From: Crocinitomicaceae bacterium
GTDB taxonomy: Bacteria; Bacteroidota; Bacteroidia; Flavobacteriales_D; Crocinitomicaceae
Length of the DNA: 64,000 nt
Reading direction: 5' to 3'
Assembly: GCA_044353585.1 (NCBI GenBank)
Contig: JBILBR010000010.1
Span: 15,353-79,352 of the forward strand
Shown here: piece by piece, positions 37,674 to 47,534 of the stretch
How the letters are laid out: each line of letters opens with the position of its first letter
Position numbering within the stretch: position 1 is the stretch's first letter
Made by a program: the position numbers and the translations under genes
The notes under the pieces: generated by a model
What the model saw: only the letters and a program-made list of their open reading frames with translations
Database searches by the model: none
Told to the model about the DNA's origin: nothing

Positions 37674-39098
37674 CTATCTATTGGCAATCATTGAAATGGC
37701 CTTATTTCTTCCTTCAATTATCTCGAGTTGTAACTTAGATAACTTATTCAATACTGAAATTAAAGACTCCCCACCGAATTCCTTTTCAACCCAATGGCTA
37801 TTGTAGTCGCCCATATTATATTTTTCAGGCTTATACATACTTGCGTACAAATCAAGCAGTTTAGTTACATCCTTCGGATTTACAATCTGACCTGAATTCG
37901 TAAGCAATTTTTCAAATTCTTGAATTCGTAATACAGAAGAATTGTTTTCTAAACTAATTTTAAAATTGGTAGTGTTGTTTGAATACGTACCACAAATTTC
38001 AACCAATTTATCTCTATAATCATTAAAACCCATCCATATCGTTCTGTAAGCTTTTGATTGTCGGTATGTATTTTCATCAAATGGCCCCAAAACTCGCCAA
38101 CTCACTTCCCTATTTGACTGATACATAATAGCATTAGCATTCAATTTAGCAGGTAATAGCGGATTATTATCATTGTATTTTACCCACAACAAACTATTAA
38201 AATCATTAACTCTTACATTATTGTTAACCGCCTCACCAGCCTCCTTCAAAAGTAACAACTTTAAATCATCGATATTCTTAATTAGATTTTGTGCTAATCC
38301 ATCGACATCATCGATTGCTTTTAATTTTGATTTTACTAATCCATCTCCAGCGCTATCAACAGCACCTTTTGTAAGTTCAATTTGCATCAAATCACCAACA
38401 TAAATCTTATTAACCATTTCATCATGTAAAACAACTTGTTGGGATAACATTGAATCGGTAATTTTTATTTTATTATTATTCGCAATGAGTAACATCGAAA
38501 AAAGGGGAATTAAAACAATCGGAATAGATTTATCTGATATGCCAAACAACCCTCTTCGTTGATCCACATCACTCATAAAATAAGCCACAAATGAAATTAC
38601 GAAAGAGATACTTCCAACGAACATAAGTTCATTTACCCCTGGCCAATGCATTAAAAAGAAAAGAAAATAAATTGCAAGAATTGAAACACCAACATTTAAA
38701 AAAACATGGATGAACCTATGAGTAGAAGTGCGGATTGCCACAGACCTTATAAAAAAGATAATTGATATGAAGGTTATGGAAAAGATCAACATTTCGTTAC
38801 ATCCAGGCCAGTGCATAATTTTGAATAAAAACCCTTGAATCATAATGGATAATAACACATGGAATGTAATGGTGAAAAATTTAGAAAATCCTTTGATTGA
38901 CGGATCTTTTCGAAAACCAATTATTAAACTTGAAATACTTAAACCTAACATTCCTAAAATCAACATCTCATTGCATCCTGGATAATGGGATACTTTCATG
39001 CCGTAACCCGCAACAGTAACAATCATAGAGAGATAAATCAAATAATCTCCAATGTTATTTCGTCTGACTTTTTTTTCATTAACTAAATTTTCATTCAT
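37674..39098 (-). CDS. 7-TM protein with three PorL/GldL-like TM-hairpin repeats and a GldM_N-like periplasmic domain
   Basis: 474 aa. The motif K(V/I)xH(Y/W)PG(C/V)NE(M/L) occurs three times (His38, His96, His151). A 7th TM is followed by a soluble domain ending FGGESLISVLNKLSKLQLEIIEGRNKAIS, which resembles the GldM N-terminal domain. Confidence 0.65.
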   Translation of the reverse strand: MNENLVNEKKVRRNNIGDYLIYLSMIVTVAGYGMKVSHYPGCNEMLILGMLGLSISSLIIGFRKDPSIKGFSKFFTITFHVLLSIMIQGFLFKIMHWPGCNEMLIFSITFISIIFFIRSVAIRTSTHRFIHVFLNVGVSILAIYFLFFLMHWPGVNELMFVGSISFVISFVAYFMSDVDQRRGLFGISDKSIPIVLIPLFSMLLIANNNKIKITDSMLSQQVVLHDEMVNKIYVGDLMQIELTKGAVDSAGDGLVKSKLKAIDDVDGLAQNLIKNIDDLKLLLLKEAGEAVNNNVRVNDFNSLLWVKYNDNNPLLPAKLNANAIMYQSNREVSWRVLGPFDENTYRQSKAYRTIWMGFNDYRDKLVEICGTYSNNTTNFKISLENNSSVLRIQEFEKLLTNSGQIVNPKDVTKLLDLYASMYKPEKYNMGDYNSHWVEKEFGGESLISVLNKLSKLQLEIIEGRNKAISMIANR

Positions 39099-39376
39099 AA
39101 TCTCAAATCTAAATAATTCAACATTTTATAAAAATACAAATTAAATGGAAAAATTGAGAATTCAAAAATGAATTGTTACAGCTACTGACTTTCGTTTATA
39201 CATGCATAGTTTCTTTAAAAAACATCCAAATCAAATCTTTTTTGGTTGAACGTGACCCTATTCAAGAACTGTAAGCAGTCAAGTATTCATATCGAAACAA
39301 ATAATATCAAAAGAAATAAATGGATTAATTGAACTAAATGAAAGTTCTCGGGTACATATTTCTCTACCTTTGTACC

Positions 39377-40555
39377 ATGAAACGCGTGGTTGTTGGTCTT
39401 TCCGGCGGTGTTGATTCCAGTGTAGCTGCTTACCTCTTGATTGAACAAGGGTATGAGGTGATCGGGATGTTTATGCGCAATTGGCATGATGAAACCGTCA
39501 CCCTTTCCAATGAATGTCCGTGGATTGATGATGCGAACGACGCCTTACTTGTTGCGCAACACCTTGGCATTCCATTTCAAGTCGTGGATTTGAGTGCGCA
39601 ATATAAAGACCGTATTGTAGACTACATGTTCCGCGAATACGAGGCCGGAAGAACGCCAAATCCCGATGTACTCTGCAACCGAGAGATTAAATTCGATGTG
39701 TTTTTAAAGGAAGCCCTTGCGCTTGGCGCAGACTATGTAGCCACCGGACATTATTGCCGTAAGCTAATTCATGAAGATGGGACACACGGTTTATTGAGTG
39801 GGCTCGATGGGAACAAAGACCAGAGTTATTTCCTTTGTCAAGTGAGTCAGGAGCAACTTCAACGTGCCCTCTTCCCTATTGGCGACTTAACCAAGGCGCA
39901 AGTGCGAGAAATTGCAAGCGAGCAAGGATTACTTACCGCAGAGAAAAAAGACTCTCAGGGCCTATGTTTTGTGGGGAAAATTAGTCTGCCTACTTTTCTG
40001 CAGCAACAATTAGCCGCTAAACCTGGACCGATTATAGAAATACCTACCACGCTTCCACAATACGCCAGCTACCAAACGATACCGCATGATTTAGCGCATG
40101 TAGTGGAATTAGCAAAGCCATTTACCTACGAAGTTTCTATGGGAGACCAGGTTGCAACACACCAAGGCGCTCACTATTACACCATCGGACAACGCAAAGG
40201 CTTGCATATCGGCGGACGACCTGAACCTAGTTTTGTATTGGCAACAGATACACAAACGAATGTGATTTATTCAGGACAAACCGATGAACATCCAGGATTA
40301 TATCGACGAGCACTTAAACTGAGTTCAAATGAAATCAATTGGATTCAACCCATTGCTAAAGAATCGCTGGAAAATGGGGTGTCTTGTTCCATTCGGATTC
40401 GTTACCGTCAAGCACTGCAAGAAGGAACCTTAATTCAAAAAGAAGGAGTCTTGTATATATTATTTGAAAAACCTCAGCGAGGAATTACTCCCGGACAGTT
40501 TGCCGCTTGGTATCTGAACGATGAGCTGATTGGCTCGGGGATCATTGCGGAGTGA
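39377..40555 (+). CDS. mnmA: tRNA 2-thiouridine(34) synthase
   Basis: PP-loop [18 protein letters not shown] with catalytic Cys contexts. The ATG lies 4 nt after a TACCTTTG box (39365-39372). Confidence 0.93.
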
Positions 40556-40867
40556 TTACCATTTCTAGTCCGATGGAGCGGATGGTCTGTATGGCAAACG
40601 ATACAGTTTGAAATCTTACTTTCAATTCGTTTGCTGTTTGATGATATATAGAAATAAAATGTATATTCGTACAAGCGTAATAAACCTGCACCAATACACC
40701 GGATTTGGATTTATAAGCGAAGTTTTATAGCATCTATAAACAAGTTATAGGGCATTTTAATGGACCACGAAGAAGCAATGCGAGAAATAGGGTCACAATA
40801 TTCAAAAGTGTCGATTGCAGTTGTATTTTTAAAACTAGCCATAAGTCATTTAACAGTAAAATCTAAA

Positions 40868-41194
40868 ATGAAGAACATCCTCATAATATGTATAGTTTTT
40901 ATTGTTAGTATAGCTTTATATTCTCAAACAATAAGTTGTGTAAACAAGTTGGACTCATCTGATGTATTTGTAATTGCAAACAGACATCGTCCCTATTTGA
41001 ATAGATCCCGTGCATTACCAAAAATTTCATACGATGGTCAAAGTTGTACTTGGACATCAATAACTGCATCCAAAATGAAGTTTACCAACAGTCGGTTCCG
41101 AACTTGGAAAACAATTACGCTGGTAATTGATGACAAAACTGGTAAGATTTTATCTAGAAAAAAAGATAAACACAAAGTTCCGAGTTACGAATGA
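40868..41194 (+). CDS. hypothetical small secreted protein (cassette ORF 1)
   Basis: The ATG at 40868 gives MKNILIICIVFIVSIALYSQ (signal peptide), 108 aa. The ORF-track start at 40760 adds an unlikely extension. Confidence 0.5.
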   Translation: MKNILIICIVFIVSIALYSQTISCVNKLDSSDVFVIANRHRPYLNRSRALPKISYDGQSCTWTSITASKMKFTNSRFRTWKTITLVIDDKTGKILSRKKDKHKVPSYE

Positions 41195-41438
41195 AACAAA
41201 CCGTTTATATAACAACAAAAACTGGCTGAATAAAATAATAAATATTATTTCTGATAAATTCCACAAATTTGATGATTTTGAAGTCTACTTTGAAAGGAAA
41301 ATAGCGTTGACTGTATTTCCTGAGCTTGCAAGTAAACTGCATAATAAATATTGTCGACTATAGATTTTAGAAATGAAAAATCAATTCACTTAGAAAGATG
41401 GAGAACAAAATATGAAGCAAACTAGTGAAGAAAAAACG

Positions 41439-41571
41439 CCCTATAACAGGGGTTTTTCGCAACGCGGGGTTTTGTGTTTCAAAAAGTCATCCAGTTGCTT
41501 GGAAGTTAGCGTTACTTTTGATACATTGGATCCCTGAAACGCGCGCTGCGCAAAGCCGCGGACCGTTATGA
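41439..41571 (+). other. attC-like imperfect palindrome 1 (about 133 bp)
   Basis: CCCTATAACAGGGGTTTTTCGCAACGCG ... CGCGCTGCGCAAAGCCGCGGACCGTTATGAG. The outer boxes ATAAC/GTTAT and the inner arms are complementary with bulges. Confidence 0.45.
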
Positions 41572-41714
41572 GCAAGTTAAACAAACATAGCTGTTCAAAG
41601 CAGGCTGACCATCTAATGTGACAAACAAAAAATTGGAGACAAGAAAACCACTATAAAAACAGGGAGTATTCTGAAAATCCATAAGAGTAGGAACAAAATT
41701 AAATCTTAAATAAA

Positions 41715-42062
41715 ATGAAAAAATTATTGATTTTAGCAACGATGTTGCTTACACTTGGTTTTGCAAAGGCGCAAACTTTTGAAAAATCACTAGCTGGAAT
41801 GTACGAATCTACTAGTGGTAGCGATTGGGTATCTCTTAAAGATAATGGAACGGGAAAATTATGTATCACGAGTGATTATATGAACTTGGGTTGTTTGAGT
41901 TTTACTTGGACTTCAGATGAAGATCAAGTATTTATTAAATTCAATGATGAGTATGGTTACGAAACATCTAAATGGAGCTATTGGGCTAAAAAAAGTGGTA
42001 TTCTTAATCTCGATTTCCCGACTGGTTTTGGTCCTAATTTAAATTTTATCAAAACAAGATAG
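41715..42062 (+). CDS. hypothetical small secreted protein (cassette ORF 2)
   Basis: 115 aa with signal peptide MKKLLILATMLLTLGFAKAQ. Confidence 0.6.
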   Translation: MKKLLILATMLLTLGFAKAQTFEKSLAGMYESTSGSDWVSLKDNGTGKLCITSDYMNLGCLSFTWTSDEDQVFIKFNDEYGYETSKWSYWAKKSGILNLDFPTGFGPNLNFIKTR

Positions 42063-42165
42063 ATAGGTAAATTCATCATATTTGTTAAACACAGCAGTTT
42101 TGATACAAAATTATCGAGGAAAAATACGTAAACTAAAAAACCCAAAGAGTATTAATACAACCTCC

Positions 42166-42254
42166 CCATAACAGCGCGCAAGCGCCATATCCATGCCGTC
42201 CCGAAGCTTCGGGACAACACAGGACTACGCTCGCCTACACGCAAACCGTTATGG
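42166..42254 (+). other. attC-like imperfect palindrome 2 (about 89 bp)
   Basis: CCATAAC (42166-42172) is the exact reverse complement of GTTATGG (42248-42254). The central perfect stem is GTCCCGAAG/CTTCGGGAC (42198-42215). Confidence 0.55.
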
Positions 42255-42273
42255 TGTATTCTAATCAAATACT

Positions 42274-43005
42274 ATGAAATTTATATTATACATCGTGGGT
42301 TTTCTTAATACGTCAATTGTTCTAGGACAACAACATCAGAATGGAAACATGTATTTATTATATGATGTTCCTAGTAATAAACATTACAATATAGACCAAG
42401 AAATCATTCCAAAGACAATTGCTCCTGGTACGTTTTGGGCATTAACATTTGGATTCAACGAAATAAACGAAGGCGGTTATATTGGAATCCAAACAGATTA
42501 TAGTAGTGTAAATAAGGGATTATTTATTTTTTCCATTTGGAATGCTGTTGGCGCAGAAAAAGGGGACAAAGAATCTTTCATAGAAGATTTCGGAGGTGAA
42601 GGTGTCGGAAAAAGTTGCAGGATTTCAATCCCTTTGATAGTATCACATATTTACAGGTTAAGAGTTTGGCAGTTAGATTCTGATATTACAGGGACATACT
42701 ATGGTGCTTGGATTCTTGACAAGTCAATCAACAAAGAGTATTATTTAGGTAAAATAAAAACAAATGAACAATCAACTCTGTCTAATCGGGTGTCAAATTT
42801 TGTAGAATACTACGGTGAAAAAAAACCTTGCAATAAGGTTCCATTCTCTCGTGCTCTTTTTTATCCAATAAAATTTGATTGTGATGATAATAGCGGCGTA
42901 TGTAAATATATTTTTATGTCCAATAGGTATACATACGCAGATTGTGTTAATGGCAAATGTATTTTGAACGACAGTTATAGTAATGTTAGTTTTGGAGGAG
43001 AATAA
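42274..43005 (+). CDS. hypothetical secreted protein (cassette ORF 3)
   Basis: 243 aa with signal peptide MKFILYIVGFLNTSIVLGQ. The start is 20 nt after the preceding attC-like site and the stop is 7 nt before the next. Confidence 0.65.
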   Translation: MKFILYIVGFLNTSIVLGQQHQNGNMYLLYDVPSNKHYNIDQEIIPKTIAPGTFWALTFGFNEINEGGYIGIQTDYSSVNKGLFIFSIWNAVGAEKGDKESFIEDFGGEGVGKSCRISIPLIVSHIYRLRVWQLDSDITGTYYGAWILDKSINKEYYLGKIKTNEQSTLSNRVSNFVEYYGEKKPCNKVPFSRALFYPIKFDCDDNSGVCKYIFMSNRYTYADCVNGKCILNDSYSNVSFGGE

Positions 43006-43012
43006 AAACATA

Positions 43013-43098
43013 CCATAACAGCGTGTAAGCAATATTGCCCTGCCCCCGCACATGCGGGACAACACAAGGCAACATCGCCTGCACGCAAACCGTTACCG
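43013..43098 (+). other. attC-like imperfect palindrome 3 (about 86 bp)
   Basis: CCATAACAGCGTGTAAGCAATATTGCC pairs with GGCAACATCGCCTGCACGCAAACCGTTAC. The central stem is CCCGCA/TGCGGG (43045-43058). The 3' box GTTACCG runs into mnmA-derived sequence. Confidence 0.55.
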
Positions 43099-43187
43099 TC
43101 AAGCACTCCAAGAAGGAACCTTAATTAAAAAAGGCGGCCTGGTATCTGCACGATGAGCTGATTGGCTCGGGGATCATTGAGAAGTGA
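43091..43187 (+). pseudogene. mnmA: decayed duplicate of the mnmA 3' end
   Basis: CGTTACCGTCAAGCACTCCAAGAAGGAACCTTAATT...TGGTATCTGCACGATGAGCTGATTGGCTCGGGGATCATTGAGAAGTGA aligns with mnmA 40400-40555. It carries substitutions and an internal deletion of about 59 bp. Confidence 0.8.
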
Positions 43188-43207
43188 TTACCGCTTCTTC
43201 TTAGGTA

Positions 43208-43545
43208 CGACTCCAATGGAGTCGGTTTAGATACGGATAAGTGTTGCCCGTTATTATATTCGACTCCGATGGAGTCGGTTTAGATACGGATAAGAGTTGC
43301 CCGTTATTATATTCGACTCCGATGGAGTCGGTTTAGATACGGATAAGTGTTGCCCGTTATTATATTCGACTCCGATGGAGTCGGTTTAGATACGGATAAG
43401 TGTCGCCCGTTATTATATTCGACTCCGATGGAGTCGGTTTAGATACGGATAAGTGTCGCCCGTTATTATATTCGACTCCGATGGAGTCGGTTTAGATACG
43501 GATAAGCGTTGCCCGTTATTATATTCGACTCCGATGGAGTCGGTT
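43208..43545. repeat. 53-bp tandem repeat, 6 full copies plus a partial seventh
   Basis: The unit CGACTCCGATGGAGTCGGTTTAGATACGGATAAGTGTTGCCCGTTATTATATT starts at 43208, 43261, 43314, 43367, 43420, 43473 and 43526. Each has a perfect 7-bp hairpin CGACTCC-GAT-GGAGTCG. Single-base variants cluster in AAGTGTTGC. Confidence 0.95.
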
Positions 43546-43569
43546 CGAGAATAGAAATCAATTCGGGTG

Positions 43570-43764
43570 TTAATTCAAACTCATTGAAAAGAAAATCGTT
43601 TGCTCCATTTCGGAAGCTTCGTTGTCTTTTTTGATTTGATCCATCAGGTTAGCCACTTCAAAAATCGACATCGTCGACTTGGTTCCTTGCTCACGGTGTA
43701 CGGAAAGTTTCAATTTAGCTTCGCGTACTACTTTACTTCTTAGACTTTGTTGATATTGTGCCAT
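43570..43764 (-). CDS. hypothetical small protein (64 aa)
   Basis: The ATG at 43764 (MAQYQQSLRSKVVREAKL...) is a likelier start than the ORF-track 43800. It lies 81 nt downstream of the nuclease gene on the same strand. Confidence 0.4.
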   Translation of the reverse strand: MAQYQQSLRSKVVREAKLKLSVHREQGTKSTMSIFEVANLMDQIKKDNEASEMEQTIFFSMSLN

Positions 43765-43845
43765 GGTTAAAATTTTGTAACGATGGCATCTTACGGACAA
43801 TATGTAACGAGGTTACAAAAATTATAAATCTTATCGAATCAGACC

Positions 43846-44757
43846 CTACGGTTTATGCTGATAACAAAACCCATCGGCATCCCCCGTCATTCGCTTACAT
43901 CGAGCACCTGCTTTTGTCATTCCTTTACATTGTGTTTGAGGTACACCCGATTGCGGTGAAGTACTTGGATTCGGAGAAGGGGAATTAATTATTGTCCATG
44001 TCCAGCAGGGAATACAAACCTCTTTTTCAAACGCATTTTCTCGTGAATCCGGCAGTTTATTAAAGAAATCAATTCCTGTTTCTTGCTCTACTTGATCTAC
44101 TGACACAGCAAATTTTTCTAGGGGCTCTTTACTTGCTTCATTCGGCATCAGAAATCCAATCGCTTTGGCATCATCTCCTGTATTATCAAGGATTACTTTG
44201 TAATAGTATTTCGGAATCGACACCCCATTTGGACCAAGTTGTACCAAGCCATCCTTCAATACAGGACCTGTAACCACATAAATGCTGTCATACGCTTTCG
44301 CCCAAGTTCTTACCTGTTCCTCTAGATTTTTCCATATCCCGCGATTGAACCCCGGCTCTTGTGGACTCATATTACTGAAATAAAACGATTCAGCCATGGC
44401 TTGTTGCGACCACCCCATATCCGCTGCAGGCGCAAGATGTCCGCGATCGTATCCCGATTTTGCATAATCAGCTACCGTAGCCGTTCCTGTAGAAACAGCA
44501 GGATCAGGGATGAATTCATCGGTTCGTTCAAATGCTTTTTCTGTTTCCTTTTTAGTTAATTCATAACCTACCCAAAACGCTTGTTCATGTTTTTCAGAGT
44601 ATTGAAAGGCATATCCCAAGTGTTTAATTACAGGTATATTTCCTTTCATCAACGGAAGCTCAAGATCATTGGGATGCAACGAATCTGGAGGTAAATTCAA
44701 TGCAAGTGATTGCATAGCAATCATACCTGTCACAATAAAAATCAATATTCTCATCAT
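43846..44757 (-). CDS. secreted DNA/RNA non-specific endonuclease (Serratia NucA-like beta-beta-alpha-Me)
   Basis: 303 aa with a signal peptide and the catalytic GYDRGHLAPAADM and FYFSNMSPQ motifs. Cys/His-rich C-terminal tail: CKGMTKAGARCKRMTGDADGFCYQH. Confidence 0.88.
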   Translation of the reverse strand: MMRILIFIVTGMIAMQSLALNLPPDSLHPNDLELPLMKGNIPVIKHLGYAFQYSEKHEQAFWVGYELTKKETEKAFERTDEFIPDPAVSTGTATVADYAKSGYDRGHLAPAADMGWSQQAMAESFYFSNMSPQEPGFNRGIWKNLEEQVRTWAKAYDSIYVVTGPVLKDGLVQLGPNGVSIPKYYYKVILDNTGDDAKAIGFLMPNEASKEPLEKFAVSVDQVEQETGIDFFNKLPDSRENAFEKEVCIPCWTWTIINSPSPNPSTSPQSGVPQTQCKGMTKAGARCKRMTGDADGFCYQHKP

Positions 44758-44758
44758 A

Positions 44759-45196
44759 TTATCTAATTTTTCCTTTATCTAACAAATGTATAAAATGAAA
44801 CCCTTTAGGCGAAAAGCCTTCGTTATAAAAGAATTTGTGTGCTTTGAAATTTGTGGTATAGGAATCTAAAGCCATCATATTGCACCCGAGCGCTTTAGCT
44901 TTTCCCTCCAGATAGTCGACGATCAACTTACCCACCCCATTACTTCTTATTTTTTCGGAAACCACAATGTTGTCAATTTCAAGGTATTTCCCACACCATA
45001 ATTTATTTCCAATCCAAACACCCGATACTCCCAGACACCTTCCTTCTTCAAAAACTGCCACTTGAGAATAATTGTGTTGAGTCATAAAGGTTAACTCGGT
45101 AGTATATTCTTCTTTGGTTAATGAGGGATACAATTCAGTGAGCACTTCATAGGTCGCCATCATCTCTTCGACGCTTGTTAATTCGATAACTTTCAT
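44759..45196 (-). CDS. GNAT-family N-acetyltransferase
   Basis: 145 aa with an acetyl-CoA-binding pattern (VVSEKIRSNGVGKLIVDYLE). Confidence 0.82.
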   Translation of the reverse strand: MKVIELTSVEEMMATYEVLTELYPSLTKEEYTTELTFMTQHNYSQVAVFEEGRCLGVSGVWIGNKLWCGKYLEIDNIVVSEKIRSNGVGKLIVDYLEGKAKALGCNMMALDSYTTNFKAHKFFYNEGFSPKGFHFIHLLDKGKIR

Positions 45197-45197
45197 C

Positions 45198-47534
45198 TTA
45201 CTTTTTAATCAAATTCTTTTCAAATAATTCATAAATCCTTCGGTACTCATCATACCATGAATAGGACTCAGTAAACCCATGCGCTTCAACCGGATAAGCC
45301 GCCAACTCCCAATTCGTTTTTCCTAATTCAATGAGGCGCTGTTGGAGTCGTACAATGTCCTGAAACTGGACGTTATCATCAACCATTCCATGCAGCATCA
45401 ACAGGGGTTTTTTCAATCCTTCTGCGTAATAAATCGGTGAACTTTTCTGGTAAGCAGTAGGATCCGTTTCAGGGTAATTTAATATGTTGCTGGTGTATTC
45501 GTGGTTATAATGCGCCCAGTCGGTAACTGAACGTAAGGCTGCGCCGCATGCAAAGGCATCCGGATGTTGGAATAAACTCATTAGCGTTACAAACCCACCA
45601 TAGGATCCGCCATAAATACCAACCCTGTTGGTATCGATGGATAACGTAGCAAGGAATTTTTTAGAATCAATAAAATCTTGCACATCCCGTCCCCCCATGT
45701 GTCGGTACACTGCGGTACGATAATCTCGTCCATACCCTGCACTGGCTCGATAATCAACATCTAAGACCGTATATCCTTGATCTACTAACAGGTTATGAAA
45801 CATATACTCTCGGTAATAATGACTCCACCAAGCGTGCGCATTCTGTAAATACCCCGCGCCGTGAACGAATAAGACCGCCGCGCCATTCTTTTTAGCAGCC
45901 GCAGGTTGATATAGGCGCGCATACACATTGATTCCGTCACTCGCTTTAAAGGTGATATACTCAGGTGTTCTCCACGGATAGGCACTGAATTTAGGAGATT
46001 GCGACTTGGTCAGTTGAATTGCGGGCTTATCCATGCTTCCAATAAATAACTCCCACGGAGCATTCGCGGTAGCGTTCAAATAAGCAACTTGTTGTTCGTT
46101 TGGTGAAATGGTCAAGTCTTTAAACCCTCCAGACGCGTTGGATATTACTGGAACTAACTTTCTGTGGATGCGATGCAACCACGCCCCTTGAAGCGCCCTC
46201 GGATTGTTAGCGTTATGAATGATAAAATAACGTTGCCCATCTTTACTCAGCATTACTTCGCTAATTTCAAATCCTTGTCCACCTGGGTATACGAGTTCCT
46301 TTTTCTTGGTAGTCAAATTCAATTCATACAATTGGGAGAACCCGTTCTCTTCGGATTGAAAATAAATCACTTCTTCTTGTTGAACAAACCCAAGGATTCC
46401 GGCTGACATATTCCATTCATTAATGCCAGGTCCTCCAATCCATGCCTCGTCGTGTTGATGTTCTAATTCAGTAATTTCTCCATTCAATAAGTTCACCGAA
46501 ACAATCCATCGGTCTTTGTTATCCGCCGCGCGGACGTCAAGCAATGCGAGGGGTATATTCACCGCAAAAACAGGATCATGCACAAAGAGTGGGCGATCTT
46601 TTTGAAAGAACATCCCTCCTACAGTGTCCATATAACTTGGTTTCTTTCGAATGTCTGAAAGCGAAGAAAAACTAAGGTTCAACACGGTATCCTTGTCCAA
46701 TGCATGAAGATACATCTGTTGGTTTGGCTCATTTTCACTGACCTTTGCGCGCGCCTCCATAGAACGAACATATCCTGAAGCCGTAATGAACTGTGGAACC
46801 AGGGTGTTCTGCCCCTCACCAGCCTCCTCTGTTCGTATAAAAACGACCCGATGTATAGGGTCTAAATAACGTCCTGAGATCGCGCCAAATCCAGCAGGAA
46901 GCTCGGTTTCTTTAACCACCTCAAACGGAGATTCATCCTTCTTTTTATCCGTTGGTTGTTGATCTCGGATGTACTCAAACAAGGCGGTTTGCTGTTTTTG
47001 TAAATGGGTTGAATCCTTCGATGTTGCTTTTTTGGGTTCAACATATCGGGTTAATTGAGTCAACTTTTGCATTCCCGAAGCATTAAAGGACAAGGCATAA
47101 AAATCTCCATTAATGCGCAAAGTAGCTTCCGTAGCGGAATACCGATTTATGTCGGAAATGAATTGATCGGTTTGAAATAAAATAATGGACTTAAGGGTTT
47201 TTCGATCAGTTAGTACCAGGCTATGTTCAAGTAAGGAAAGTTGATTCGTGAAATTAGCTTGGCGCTGGTCATACCCAACAACCGCTGCCATTTCAAGTTC
47301 TGTTATTGGAGAAAGCACACCCGTTTTGACGAGATAACGGTAGGGTTCAGATTCGTCTTTACCGTCCTTATTCCAACGAAAATAAACCGCTGAACCGTCT
47401 AAATTCCATTGGGGGGATTCCGGCCAGTACCCGGTAAAGTCCTGTCCTTTCATAATTTCCTTGAGTTCTAGTGTAGGTTGGGCAAGAACAAGGATATTCA
47501 GAAAACACAAGAAAATAAGGATCGTTGACTTCAT
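45198..47534 (-). CDS. S9-family serine peptidase (prolyl oligopeptidase/dipeptidyl peptidase-like), secreted
   Basis: Nucleophile elbow GGSYGG plus the LHGMVDDNV and EAHGF catalytic contexts. The ATG at 47534 gives signal peptide MKSTILIFLCFLNILVLAQ. Confidence 0.88.
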   Translation of the reverse strand: MKSTILIFLCFLNILVLAQPTLELKEIMKGQDFTGYWPESPQWNLDGSAVYFRWNKDGKDESEPYRYLVKTGVLSPITELEMAAVVGYDQRQANFTNQLSLLEHSLVLTDRKTLKSIILFQTDQFISDINRYSATEATLRINGDFYALSFNASGMQKLTQLTRYVEPKKATSKDSTHLQKQQTALFEYIRDQQPTDKKKDESPFEVVKETELPAGFGAISGRYLDPIHRVVFIRTEEAGEGQNTLVPQFITASGYVRSMEARAKVSENEPNQQMYLHALDKDTVLNLSFSSLSDIRKKPSYMDTVGGMFFQKDRPLFVHDPVFAVNIPLALLDVRAADNKDRWIVSVNLLNGEITELEHQHDEAWIGGPGINEWNMSAGILGFVQQEEVIYFQSEENGFSQLYELNLTTKKKELVYPGGQGFEISEVMLSKDGQRYFIIHNANNPRALQGAWLHRIHRKLVPVISNASGGFKDLTISPNEQQVAYLNATANAPWELFIGSMDKPAIQLTKSQSPKFSAYPWRTPEYITFKASDGINVYARLYQPAAAKKNGAAVLFVHGAGYLQNAHAWWSHYYREYMFHNLLVDQGYTVLDVDYRASAGYGRDYRTAVYRHMGGRDVQDFIDSKKFLATLSIDTNRVGIYGGSYGGFVTLMSLFQHPDAFACGAALRSVTDWAHYNHEYTSNILNYPETDPTAYQKSSPIYYAEGLKKPLLMLHGMVDDNVQFQDIVRLQQRLIELGKTNWELAAYPVEAHGFTESYSWYDEYRRIYELFEKNLIKK

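Follow-up and report, generated by a model that had tools for sequence, protein, structure and literature searches.

A gene-cassette platform of the integron type is very probably lodged in the 3' end of mnmA, the gene of the tRNA 2-thiouridine synthase, in a 64,000-nucleotide stretch of contig JBILBR010000010.1 from a Crocinitomicaceae bacterium of the Bacteroidota, and its cassettes appear to behave as those of integrons do. This whole stretch, of 64 kilobases (kb), is called the window here. The platform lies between positions 40402 and 43198 and holds an attI site and three cassettes, each with an open reading frame (ORF) and an attC site. Observed in the window and in related DNA are a family of sites with a common structure, unit boundaries at G↓TT (the arrow marks the crossover), the complementarity expected of cassettes that pass through a circle, cassettes shared between arrays, their turnover beside mnmA, and linkage of the sites to the gene of a tyrosine recombinase of 279 amino acids (aa). 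The original prediction, made from the letters of the window, had described an array of integron cassettes with attC-like sites, and it is borne out by the matches of a covariance model, the circular signature, the mobility of the cassettes and the recombinase linkage in other genomes. Contigs and loci from other genomes are designated by L numbers.

The attC site family

The sites were searched with a covariance model, R1, trained on 40 sites from arrays beside recombinase genes in other genomes; the window contributed no site to this training set, in which one member (L005_2588) nevertheless nearly matches window site 3. On both strands of the 64 kb, R1 gives exactly three matches, site 3 (63.8 bits, E 1e-13), site 1 (58.4 bits, E 2e-12) and site 2 (32.8 bits, E 8e-6), all on the plus strand, one per ORF and each 3' of its ORF, and nothing further at E ≤ 10. 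The imperfect palindromes first noticed at 41439-41571, 42166-42254 and 43013-43098 are recovered in this way with the limits given in Table 1. Across 1.03 Mb around 90 recombinase genes, the model finds 99 matches at E ≤ 0.01, 97 of them on the recombinase strand; all 97 lie downstream of the gene, and the upstream flanks hold none.

Palindromes behind small genes may also be repetitive extragenic palindromic (REP) elements, repeats resembling miniature inverted-repeat transposable elements (MITEs), or terminators, without any cassette mobility. In keeping with this, the three are intergenic, imperfect, GC-rich relative to their surroundings and 3' of ORFs, and one terminator-like pattern overlaps site 1. 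However, scattered repeats do not fit just three copies, oriented alike, in 64 kb, as the original prediction required for cassettes, nor copies that elsewhere follow one recombinase gene on its own strand, nor identical ORF-plus-site units with G↓TT ends in different arrays. Regarding terminators, sites 2 and 3 have no T-tract, and terminator-like sites number 3 versus 2.0 expected; the circular-cassette complementarity described below is expected neither of REPs nor of terminators. Because of copy number, orientation, recombinase linkage and this circular signature, such readings are scarcely credible.

The structure imposed on an alignment of 40 sites (A3) has an outer box helix, in which AAC pairs with GTT together with up to five further pairs, and a stem of 19 pairs; the unpaired spacer is asymmetric, with 1 nucleotide (nt) on one side versus 5 nt on the other, and a never-paired position lies at columns 27/115. 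AAC and GTT are invariant in 40/40 sites, whose length ranges from 60 to 190 nt with boxes 50-180 nt apart. Paired cells reach 79% versus 57% after shuffling, a value attained in none of 500 shuffles, and the covariation score is 0.484 versus 0.141, with changes on both sides in 22 of the 27 pairs; when partners are slid by 1-3 columns, 27-36% of the cells are paired. Compensating changes in the central stems of sites 2 and 3, pointed out in the original prediction, are present. As the initial site set was partly picked by stem score, two checks were added against circularity. Pairs outside the selection window covary strongly (for instance, CG in 18 and GC in 15 at columns 31-111), and a sequence-only pattern gives 195 matches on the plus strand versus 19 on the minus strand, with a bimodal pairing distribution on the former and no match attaining 7/10 pairs on the latter. 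A generic scan for AAC...GTT with a stem was dropped as too noisy (284 plus-strand versus 240 minus-strand matches), and motif-anchored selection with the covariance model was used instead.

When folded in silico as DNA, the bottom strand is the more stable in 38/43 sites (mean -19.6 versus -16.3 kcal/mol, p 2e-7), and the conserved A.C mismatches of the top strand are G.T pairs on the bottom strand. In the window, the bottom strand reaches -23.3 kcal/mol (z -4.3) at site 2 and -20.2 kcal/mol (z -3.2) at site 3, compared with -16.3 and -13.0 kcal/mol for the respective top strands. In an Rfam scan by E-value of positions 38000-46000, no family matches the three sites above its gathering score, the attC-like motifs Transposase-resistance and DUF1874 are absent, and the sole pass is the DUF805 leader in cassette 2; a weak sub-threshold match to COG2908 (17.5 bits versus 58.7) overlaps site 1. 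A class of long attC sites of about 140 nt also occurs in the family (e.g., L014 11384-11524), with a central region of two to three repeats of a unit of about 25 nt (...CAGTGCTAAATTGAACATTTGT...), which suggests a terminal structure more elaborate than a plain hairpin.

Circular-cassette signature and cassette exchange

If cassettes are excised as circles at G↓TT, the 5' box of a site is predicted to pair with the start of its own unit and not with what follows its own GTT. Over the 8 nt that precede AAC, complementarity to the cassette's own start, behind the preceding GTT, averages 6.4/8 and reaches at least six pairs in 47 of 53 consecutive site pairs, compared with 3.3/8 for the own linear partner and 3.1/8 for random pairs. 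The attI junction is complementary in the same way to the first attC detected in 25/27 loci, including units of 7.6-8.4 kb. Units 1, 2 and 3 of the window score 7, 5 and 6 of 8, respectively; the start of cassette 1, TTATAGGGCATTTT, is 93% complementary to 41433-41447 in the 5' flank of site 1, and the 15-nt stretch 40744-40758 reads GTTATAGGGCATTTT. This match between each box and the start of its own cassette argues for cassettes of the integron type and is taken as the decisive evidence. With the crossover G at 40744, 41565, 42248 and 43092, the units, first estimated at about 820, 680 and 840 bp, have the lengths listed in Table 1.

The exact protein of ORF3 is present on 13 metagenome contigs, among which L001, L003, L004 and L006 are the mnmA locus itself at roughly 90-98% identity. 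In contrast to these, L002 carries the gene of the 279-aa recombinase followed by four same-strand units of an ORF plus a palindrome, and window positions 42242-43081 correspond to L002 3976-4815 at 99.2%, that is, exactly unit 3 with an intact recombinase nearby. Cassette 3 is also found in the arrays of L005, where it is preceded by a 302-aa unit missing from the window, and of L007 and L008, with other neighbours. Similarly, the stretch of cassette 1 at 40744-41574 recurs in L115 (3985-4815) at 98.6% with the same boundaries; this copy has a site of the family on either side and belongs to an array adjoining histidine-kinase and LytTR genes. Cassette 2 was not seen outside the mnmA context.

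Much larger first "cassettes", multi-gene blocks of 7.6-8.4 kb, follow an identical recombinase in L010 (10934-18692), L012 (10934-18706) and L028 (10933-19436), and a further one occurs in L011. They contain restriction-modification or defence genes, such as MmeI/Eco57I-like and type III-like systems, or type I genes with SduA_C and AAA_13 in L011, and extend from attI to an attC whose 5' box fits the start of the block (6/8). Thus, an identical recombinase protein is followed in different samples by different restriction-modification or defence blocks.

The attI site and the platform at mnmA

In 37 recombinase loci, the approximately 105 nt 3' of the recombinase stop are conserved and end in ...TTTRTAGCGnnTATAA-RYW-AG↓TT(A/G), beyond which the sequences are unrelated. 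Window positions 40607-40746 align with the last ~11 recombinase codons (FDDI-stop versus the intact FDDL-stop) and with the entire attI, and positions 40624-40757 are 86% identical, over about 130 nt, to the recombinase end and following sequence of L002. The small palindrome at 40734-40750, which the original prediction took as the left edge of the array, is real, but since the window aligns with the whole attI, with the G at 40744, it is the core of attI behind a recombinase stub and not an edge mark of a minimal attC type. A metagenome scan with a 25-mer of attI retrieved seven contigs, each of which continues differently after G↓TT; together with the window, L002 and L025, ten first cassettes are known at one attI sequence.

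As predicted, the 64 kb encode no recombinase that could be found by tblastn with the 279-aa protein or by a six-frame search for tyrosine-recombinase motifs. With three attC sites and no integrase nearby, the array fits the IntegronFinder definition of an attC cluster devoid of an integrase (CALIN), namely at least two attC sites without an integron integrase nearby. The earlier assignment to this class holds to that extent, but because attI and the 3' stub of the recombinase gene are retained, the array is a decayed or satellite platform and not a bare attC cluster.

On both sides of the platform stands a copy of the mnmA 3' end, a duplication that had escaped the first description. A repeat search pairs 40400-40442 with 43091-43133 (95%) and 40502-40566 with 43134-43198 (89%). 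The left copy opens at the GTT 40401-40403 inside mnmA and comprises the functional end of the gene plus 11 nt, with weaker repeat-unit similarity to about 40600; the right copy joins the end of site 3 exactly (...AAACCG↓TTACCGTCAAG). In L001, L003, L004, L006 and L020, the right copy is complete, with 165-167 nt versus 40400/40402-40566, starting from the TT of GTT.

Table 1. Features of the mnmA locus and its cassette platform (window positions)
Feature	Position	Strand	Remarks
mnmA (tRNA 2-thiouridine synthase), intact	39338-40555	+	Pfam domains tRNA_Me_trans HUP, M and C; the left duplicate includes the last 154 nt (from 40402)
Left copy, duplicated mnmA 3' segment	40402-40566	+	Repeat families D4, D5, D2; begins at the TT of GTT 40401-40403
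Remnant, 3' end of the 279-aa tyrosine recombinase gene	40607-40651	+	MAFFT alignments to L002 and 37 recombinase loci
attI site	40652-40746	+	Ends CTATAAACAAG↓TTA; crossover between G40744 and T40745
Cassette 1, 821 nt	40745-41565	+	ORF 40868-41194 (108 aa, signal peptide, no family); attC 41437-41575
Cassette 2, 683 nt	41566-42248	+	DUF805 RNA leader 41628-41697; ORF 41715-42062 (115 aa); attC 42162-42258
Cassette 3, 844 nt	42249-43092	+	ORF 42274-43005 (243 aa, DUF3472); attC 43009-43102
Right, displaced mnmA 3' copy, decayed	43093-43198	+	D4 89%, D5 95%; 59-nt internal deletion
53-nt tandem repeat, 6.4 copies, 97% identity	43208-43545		Tandem Repeats Finder; every unit carries the 17-nt palindrome CGACTCCGATGGAGTCG

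In relatives, the region downstream of mnmA varies in cassette-sized blocks bounded at G↓TT, as the original prediction anticipated for a cassette array, and three versions are sequenced. Besides that of the window, L020 and L021 have a single cassette for a 538-aa trypsin/TPR protein, whose 5' box ACACCTAAC perfectly complements its start GTTAGGTGT and which is bounded by attI and the ...G↓TTACCGTCAAG junction as in the window, and L106, with an mnmA 96% identical, has another first cassette at the platform. A further contig, known from its gene record only, has a 193-aa gene upstream of the gene of the 76-aa neighbour. In the relatives with a variant platform, the neighbouring 76-aa protein is identical and the mnmA DNA is about 93% identical. 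These other contents indicate that the platform is older than these strains and that cassettes have been exchanged since. As close relatives differ in their cassettes at a platform without integrase, the exchange must occur in trans. Moreover, different last cassettes abut the same TTACCGTCAAG, so that the right mnmA copy is best read as the right half of the original junction.

These variants also bear on the idea of an ordinary small genomic islet, brought by a 3'-end-targeting element or by homologous recombination, which would by now have lost its activity and become fixed, leaving the palindromes as relics. The block does lie between direct repeats of the target gene's 3' end, as integrative islands do, the recombinase gene is reduced to a stub, and L001, L003, L004, L006, L114 and L116 share all three cassettes at 95-100% identity. 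Nevertheless, other close relatives hold different cassettes at the same platform, and attI and the three attC sites are intact, the latter scoring like sites of recombinase-linked arrays, which makes an inert islet very improbable; an origin as an islet is compatible with, and part of, the integron-platform explanation.

Regarding the cargo, none of the three ORFs had been assigned to a family; ORF1 still has none, but ORF3 matches Pfam DUF3472 (E 1e-18). The cassette DNA has a GC content of 31-38% versus 43-47% in the flanks. The DUF805 motif of Rfam (RF03081) exceeds its gathering score in cassette 2 (64 bits), in L015 (15599-15667, 74.8 bits) and in L045 (14095-14163, 72.4 bits), each time inside a cassette between the preceding attC and the cassette ORF, and it may serve cassettes as a 5' leader that moves along with them.

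As for the surroundings, the 53-nt tandem repeat belongs to the chromosomal flank and lies outside the cassette system. Its amount appears strain-dependent, with a single degenerate unit in L020, and a degenerate unit is also found 3' of the left mnmA copy (40563-40600). On the other side, mnmA adjoins the gene of a 474-aa membrane protein (37674-39098, minus strand), which is AT-rich (29-32% GC) like the cassettes and for which a weak match to GldL_N (gliding motility) is recorded in related contigs, in line with a host from the Bacteroidota.

The 279-aa recombinase family

Among NCBIfam models, the best match of the recombinase is NF040815, archaeal XerA/"integron integrase", with 218.4 bits versus a cut-off of 220. 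TIGR02249, the integron integrase, follows with 208.2 bits versus 265, matched in two pieces, then XerD (196 versus 329.6), XerC (190 versus 335.15) and NF011946 (136.7 versus 435). Compared with VchIntIA (Protein Data Bank code 2a3v), residues 9-183 align with 8-182 and 206-277 with 247-318, which leaves 22 aa where IntI has 64. This difference indicates that the IntI-specific domain, around patch III, is absent and that the protein is colinear with XerA and XerD; because it lacks that domain, the cognate recombinase is, judged by sequence, not a canonical IntI. The expected catalytic positions (R, K, H, R, H, Y) are occupied by invariant residues in the family, with putative roles assigned by homology to other tyrosine recombinases. 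An AlphaFold2 model from 25 close homologues has a mean predicted local distance difference test (pLDDT) score of 61.5, with the catalytic domain below about 55.

The family is large, with at least 8000 scored candidates, all at E ≤ 1e-20; the 120 highest-ranking have 80-92% identity and, with few exceptions, 279 aa, and close members have 278-286 aa, save one 266-aa entry covering 95% of the query. In species-representative genomes, it occurs in Flavobacteriales, including Crocinitomicaceae and Cryomorphaceae, mostly at 69-99% identity, and in other Bacteroidota and Ignavibacteria, mostly at 54-70%. Where at least 3 kb are available downstream of the recombinase, R1 finds a match in 18/20 loci. 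Among 80 species-representative contigs (L025-L104), 73 end less than 9.9 kb past the recombinase gene and 29 within 300 nt of its stop; contig ends accumulate at 96-109 nt, roughly where the attI crossover lies, as would be expected if strain-level variation of the first cassette broke assemblies there. At 12 main recombinase loci, no flanking duplication like that of mnmA was found over 4 kb upstream and as much as 10 kb downstream.

Genes for ORF6N (PF10543) and for SSB, a protein that binds single-stranded DNA, were considered as accessory factors and rejected, since ORF6N is adjacent in 21/69 loci and SSB in 2/69. In L010-L019, one to three tandem ORF6N genes, 4 nt apart, lie in the 1-2 kb directly upstream of the recombinase, and some loci have two SSB ORFs. 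Both genes are confined to the closest lineages and are probably outside the system.

Proposed mode of action

The platform would consist, in this order, of a replacement mnmA 3' end, the recombinase stub, attI, three promoter-proximal cassettes on the same strand and the displaced original mnmA 3' end, with each cassette providing one ORF for a putative secreted protein and an attC that folds into a hairpin. Recombination between two sites at G↓TT would release cassettes as circles, which would be inserted at attI, with attC most likely acting as a folded bottom strand in a presumed single-stranded DNA reaction. Because the 64 kb encode no recombinase, the enzyme would be supplied in trans from the main locus of the genome, where a gene for the 279-aa Xer/IntI-like recombinase would precede attI and an array, all on one strand. 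As to its arrival, a circular element with an mnmA 3' copy, the recombinase gene and attI may have integrated through attI at the GTT of mnmA, bringing the replacement 3' end, and the recombinase gene may have been deleted later.

Several points weigh against this explanation. The route of the platform to mnmA is a model: the metagenome scan with the attI 25-mer recovered neither an empty platform, with attI joined to TTACCGTCAAG, nor an mnmA-linked intact copy of the recombinase. At site 1, the bottom strand alone folds no better than its shuffles (z -1.0), and the site is recognized through the family model; of the bottom-strand folding envisaged in the original prediction, only that of sites 2 and 3 exceeds shuffles. 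The 279-aa recombinase also lacks the approximately 42-aa IntI-specific domain that is reported to be necessary for attC recombination, so either the mechanism differs in detail or a further factor is needed, and its part as the catalyst is suggested by co-location with the arrays.

Furthermore, the 12 nt that precede G↓TT vary at about half of their positions among copies of the ORF3 cassette with 99% identity elsewhere. In the window (43081-43092), L002 (4816-4827), L005 (2654-2665) and L008 (960-971), these read CACGCAAACCG, GTGCGCGGCACG, CATGCAAAACG and CACACGGACCG, respectively, and the variable stretch moves with neither the upstream nor the downstream cassette; it could reflect a second exchange point or heteroduplex repair in the spacer. 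In L007 (763-905), fusion at ...CCATAACAG↓ has joined the coding region of ORF3 to another attC, of the type found 3' of the 578-aa cassette in L002, indicating that exchange or deletion is possible at the 5' box too. A strict single crossover at G↓TT predicts neither the variable 12 nt nor this fusion.

Both features would suit a Xer-type module system like that of the pdif sites on Acinetobacter plasmids, with a double-stranded, two-strand exchange at dif-like cores and incidental palindromes. The 5-6 nt before G↓TT differ between copies of one cassette as an overlap between staggered cuts might, the exchange point in L007 lies at the 5' box TAACAG↓, and the recombinase has no IntI insertion, aligns colinearly with XerA and XerD and finds its best match in the archaeal XerA model (218 bits). 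On the other hand, the conserved boxes of the present sites are 50-180 nt apart and are brought together only by folding of the strand, the stem between them is kept by covariation and not by sequence, and the bottom strand is systematically the stabler. The layout of attI is that of a simple site (...TATAA-RYW-AG↓TTA), and 28-bp dif-like sites with a central region of 6-8 bp and in alternating orientation, as in pdif modules, are not found, the sites being of 60-190 nt and all direct. A Xer-type module system is considered unlikely on these grounds, and an integron-type platform remains the preferred explanation.

Comparison with known systems

The arrays share with chromosomal integrons and CALINs the same-strand order of mostly single-ORF cassettes, imperfect palindromes with invariant AAC...GTT and a structure that is kept, the G↓TT crossover, the logic of circular cassettes, an attI beside the recombinase gene and a bottom strand that folds better in silico, as well as cassettes for secreted proteins and defence systems. 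In addition, the attI described here (...TATAA-RYW-AG↓TTA) resembles attI1 (...CCTAAAACAAAG↓TTA). They differ in the recombinase of 279 aa, without the IntI domain and below the TIGR02249 cut-off (208 versus 265 bits), in the asymmetric unpaired spacer (1 versus 5 nt) and in having some multi-gene cassettes of 7.6-8.4 kb. With IntegronFinder 2.0, a single complete integron was reported in Bacteroidetes, in Salinibacter ruber, leaving the phylum almost without integrons (PMC9024848).

The order of recombinase, attI and cassettes on one strand is that of the "inverted" integrons of Treponema and of archaeal integrons. Treponema integrases carry the additional domain, unlike the 279-aa family. 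For archaeal integrases, the domain is reported in PMC9668308, which describes archaeal attI sites as immediately downstream of intI. A statement in the same source, citing Messier and Roy 2001, calls the additional domain of IntI defining and necessary for attC recombination, whereas a survey of tyrosine recombinases describes the insertion as "not fully conserved" in an integron-like subgroup (PMC8138268).

With XerA, XerC and XerD acting on dif and pdif, the family shares recombinase length and colinearity, but its sites are hairpins of 60-190 nt in direct orientation and not 28-bp dif sites, and its arrays are tied to one attI-bearing locus with a hypervariable downstream region. No sign of a part in the resolution of chromosome dimers was found, although no search aimed at it was made. 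The locus also resembles integrative islands that target 3' ends, given the direct repeat of the mnmA 3' end, the gene kept intact by an element-borne copy and the decay of the displaced copy. It differs from them in that the insert has only 2.7 kb, the recombinase is deleted, the junction is the attI crossover and the internal cassettes are still exchanged. No description of such a system was found in the literature, the coverage of which was incomplete, and this is a weak sign of novelty.

Significance

The element would be a new variant, an integron-type element with a non-IntI recombinase, of interest to specialists in mobile elements. On a broader scale, it seems evenly balanced whether Bacteroidota (Flavobacteriales, Cytophagales, Sphingobacteriales, Bacteroidales and Saprospiraceae) and Ignavibacteria carry a widespread and apparently unrecognized class of integrons, with a Xer-like integrase of 279 aa, hypervariable arrays and satellite attI platforms that exchange cassettes in trans. 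The additional domain of IntI is treated as diagnostic and mechanistically necessary, and here the full logic of integrons is tied to an abundant family without it. If this is true, the recombination of hairpin attC sites needs no IntI domain or has evolved twice, cassettes can be as long as about 8 kb and contain entire restriction-modification systems, and surveys that require the IntI domain score these integrons as CALINs or miss them. If confirmed, it would widen the distribution of integrons, provide a natural test of the purpose of the additional domain and explain many "orphan" attC clusters, as well as the assembly breaks just after the recombinase gene near attI. The window itself would then offer a concrete case of an attI platform without integrase, lodged in a housekeeping gene, in which cassettes are still turning over.

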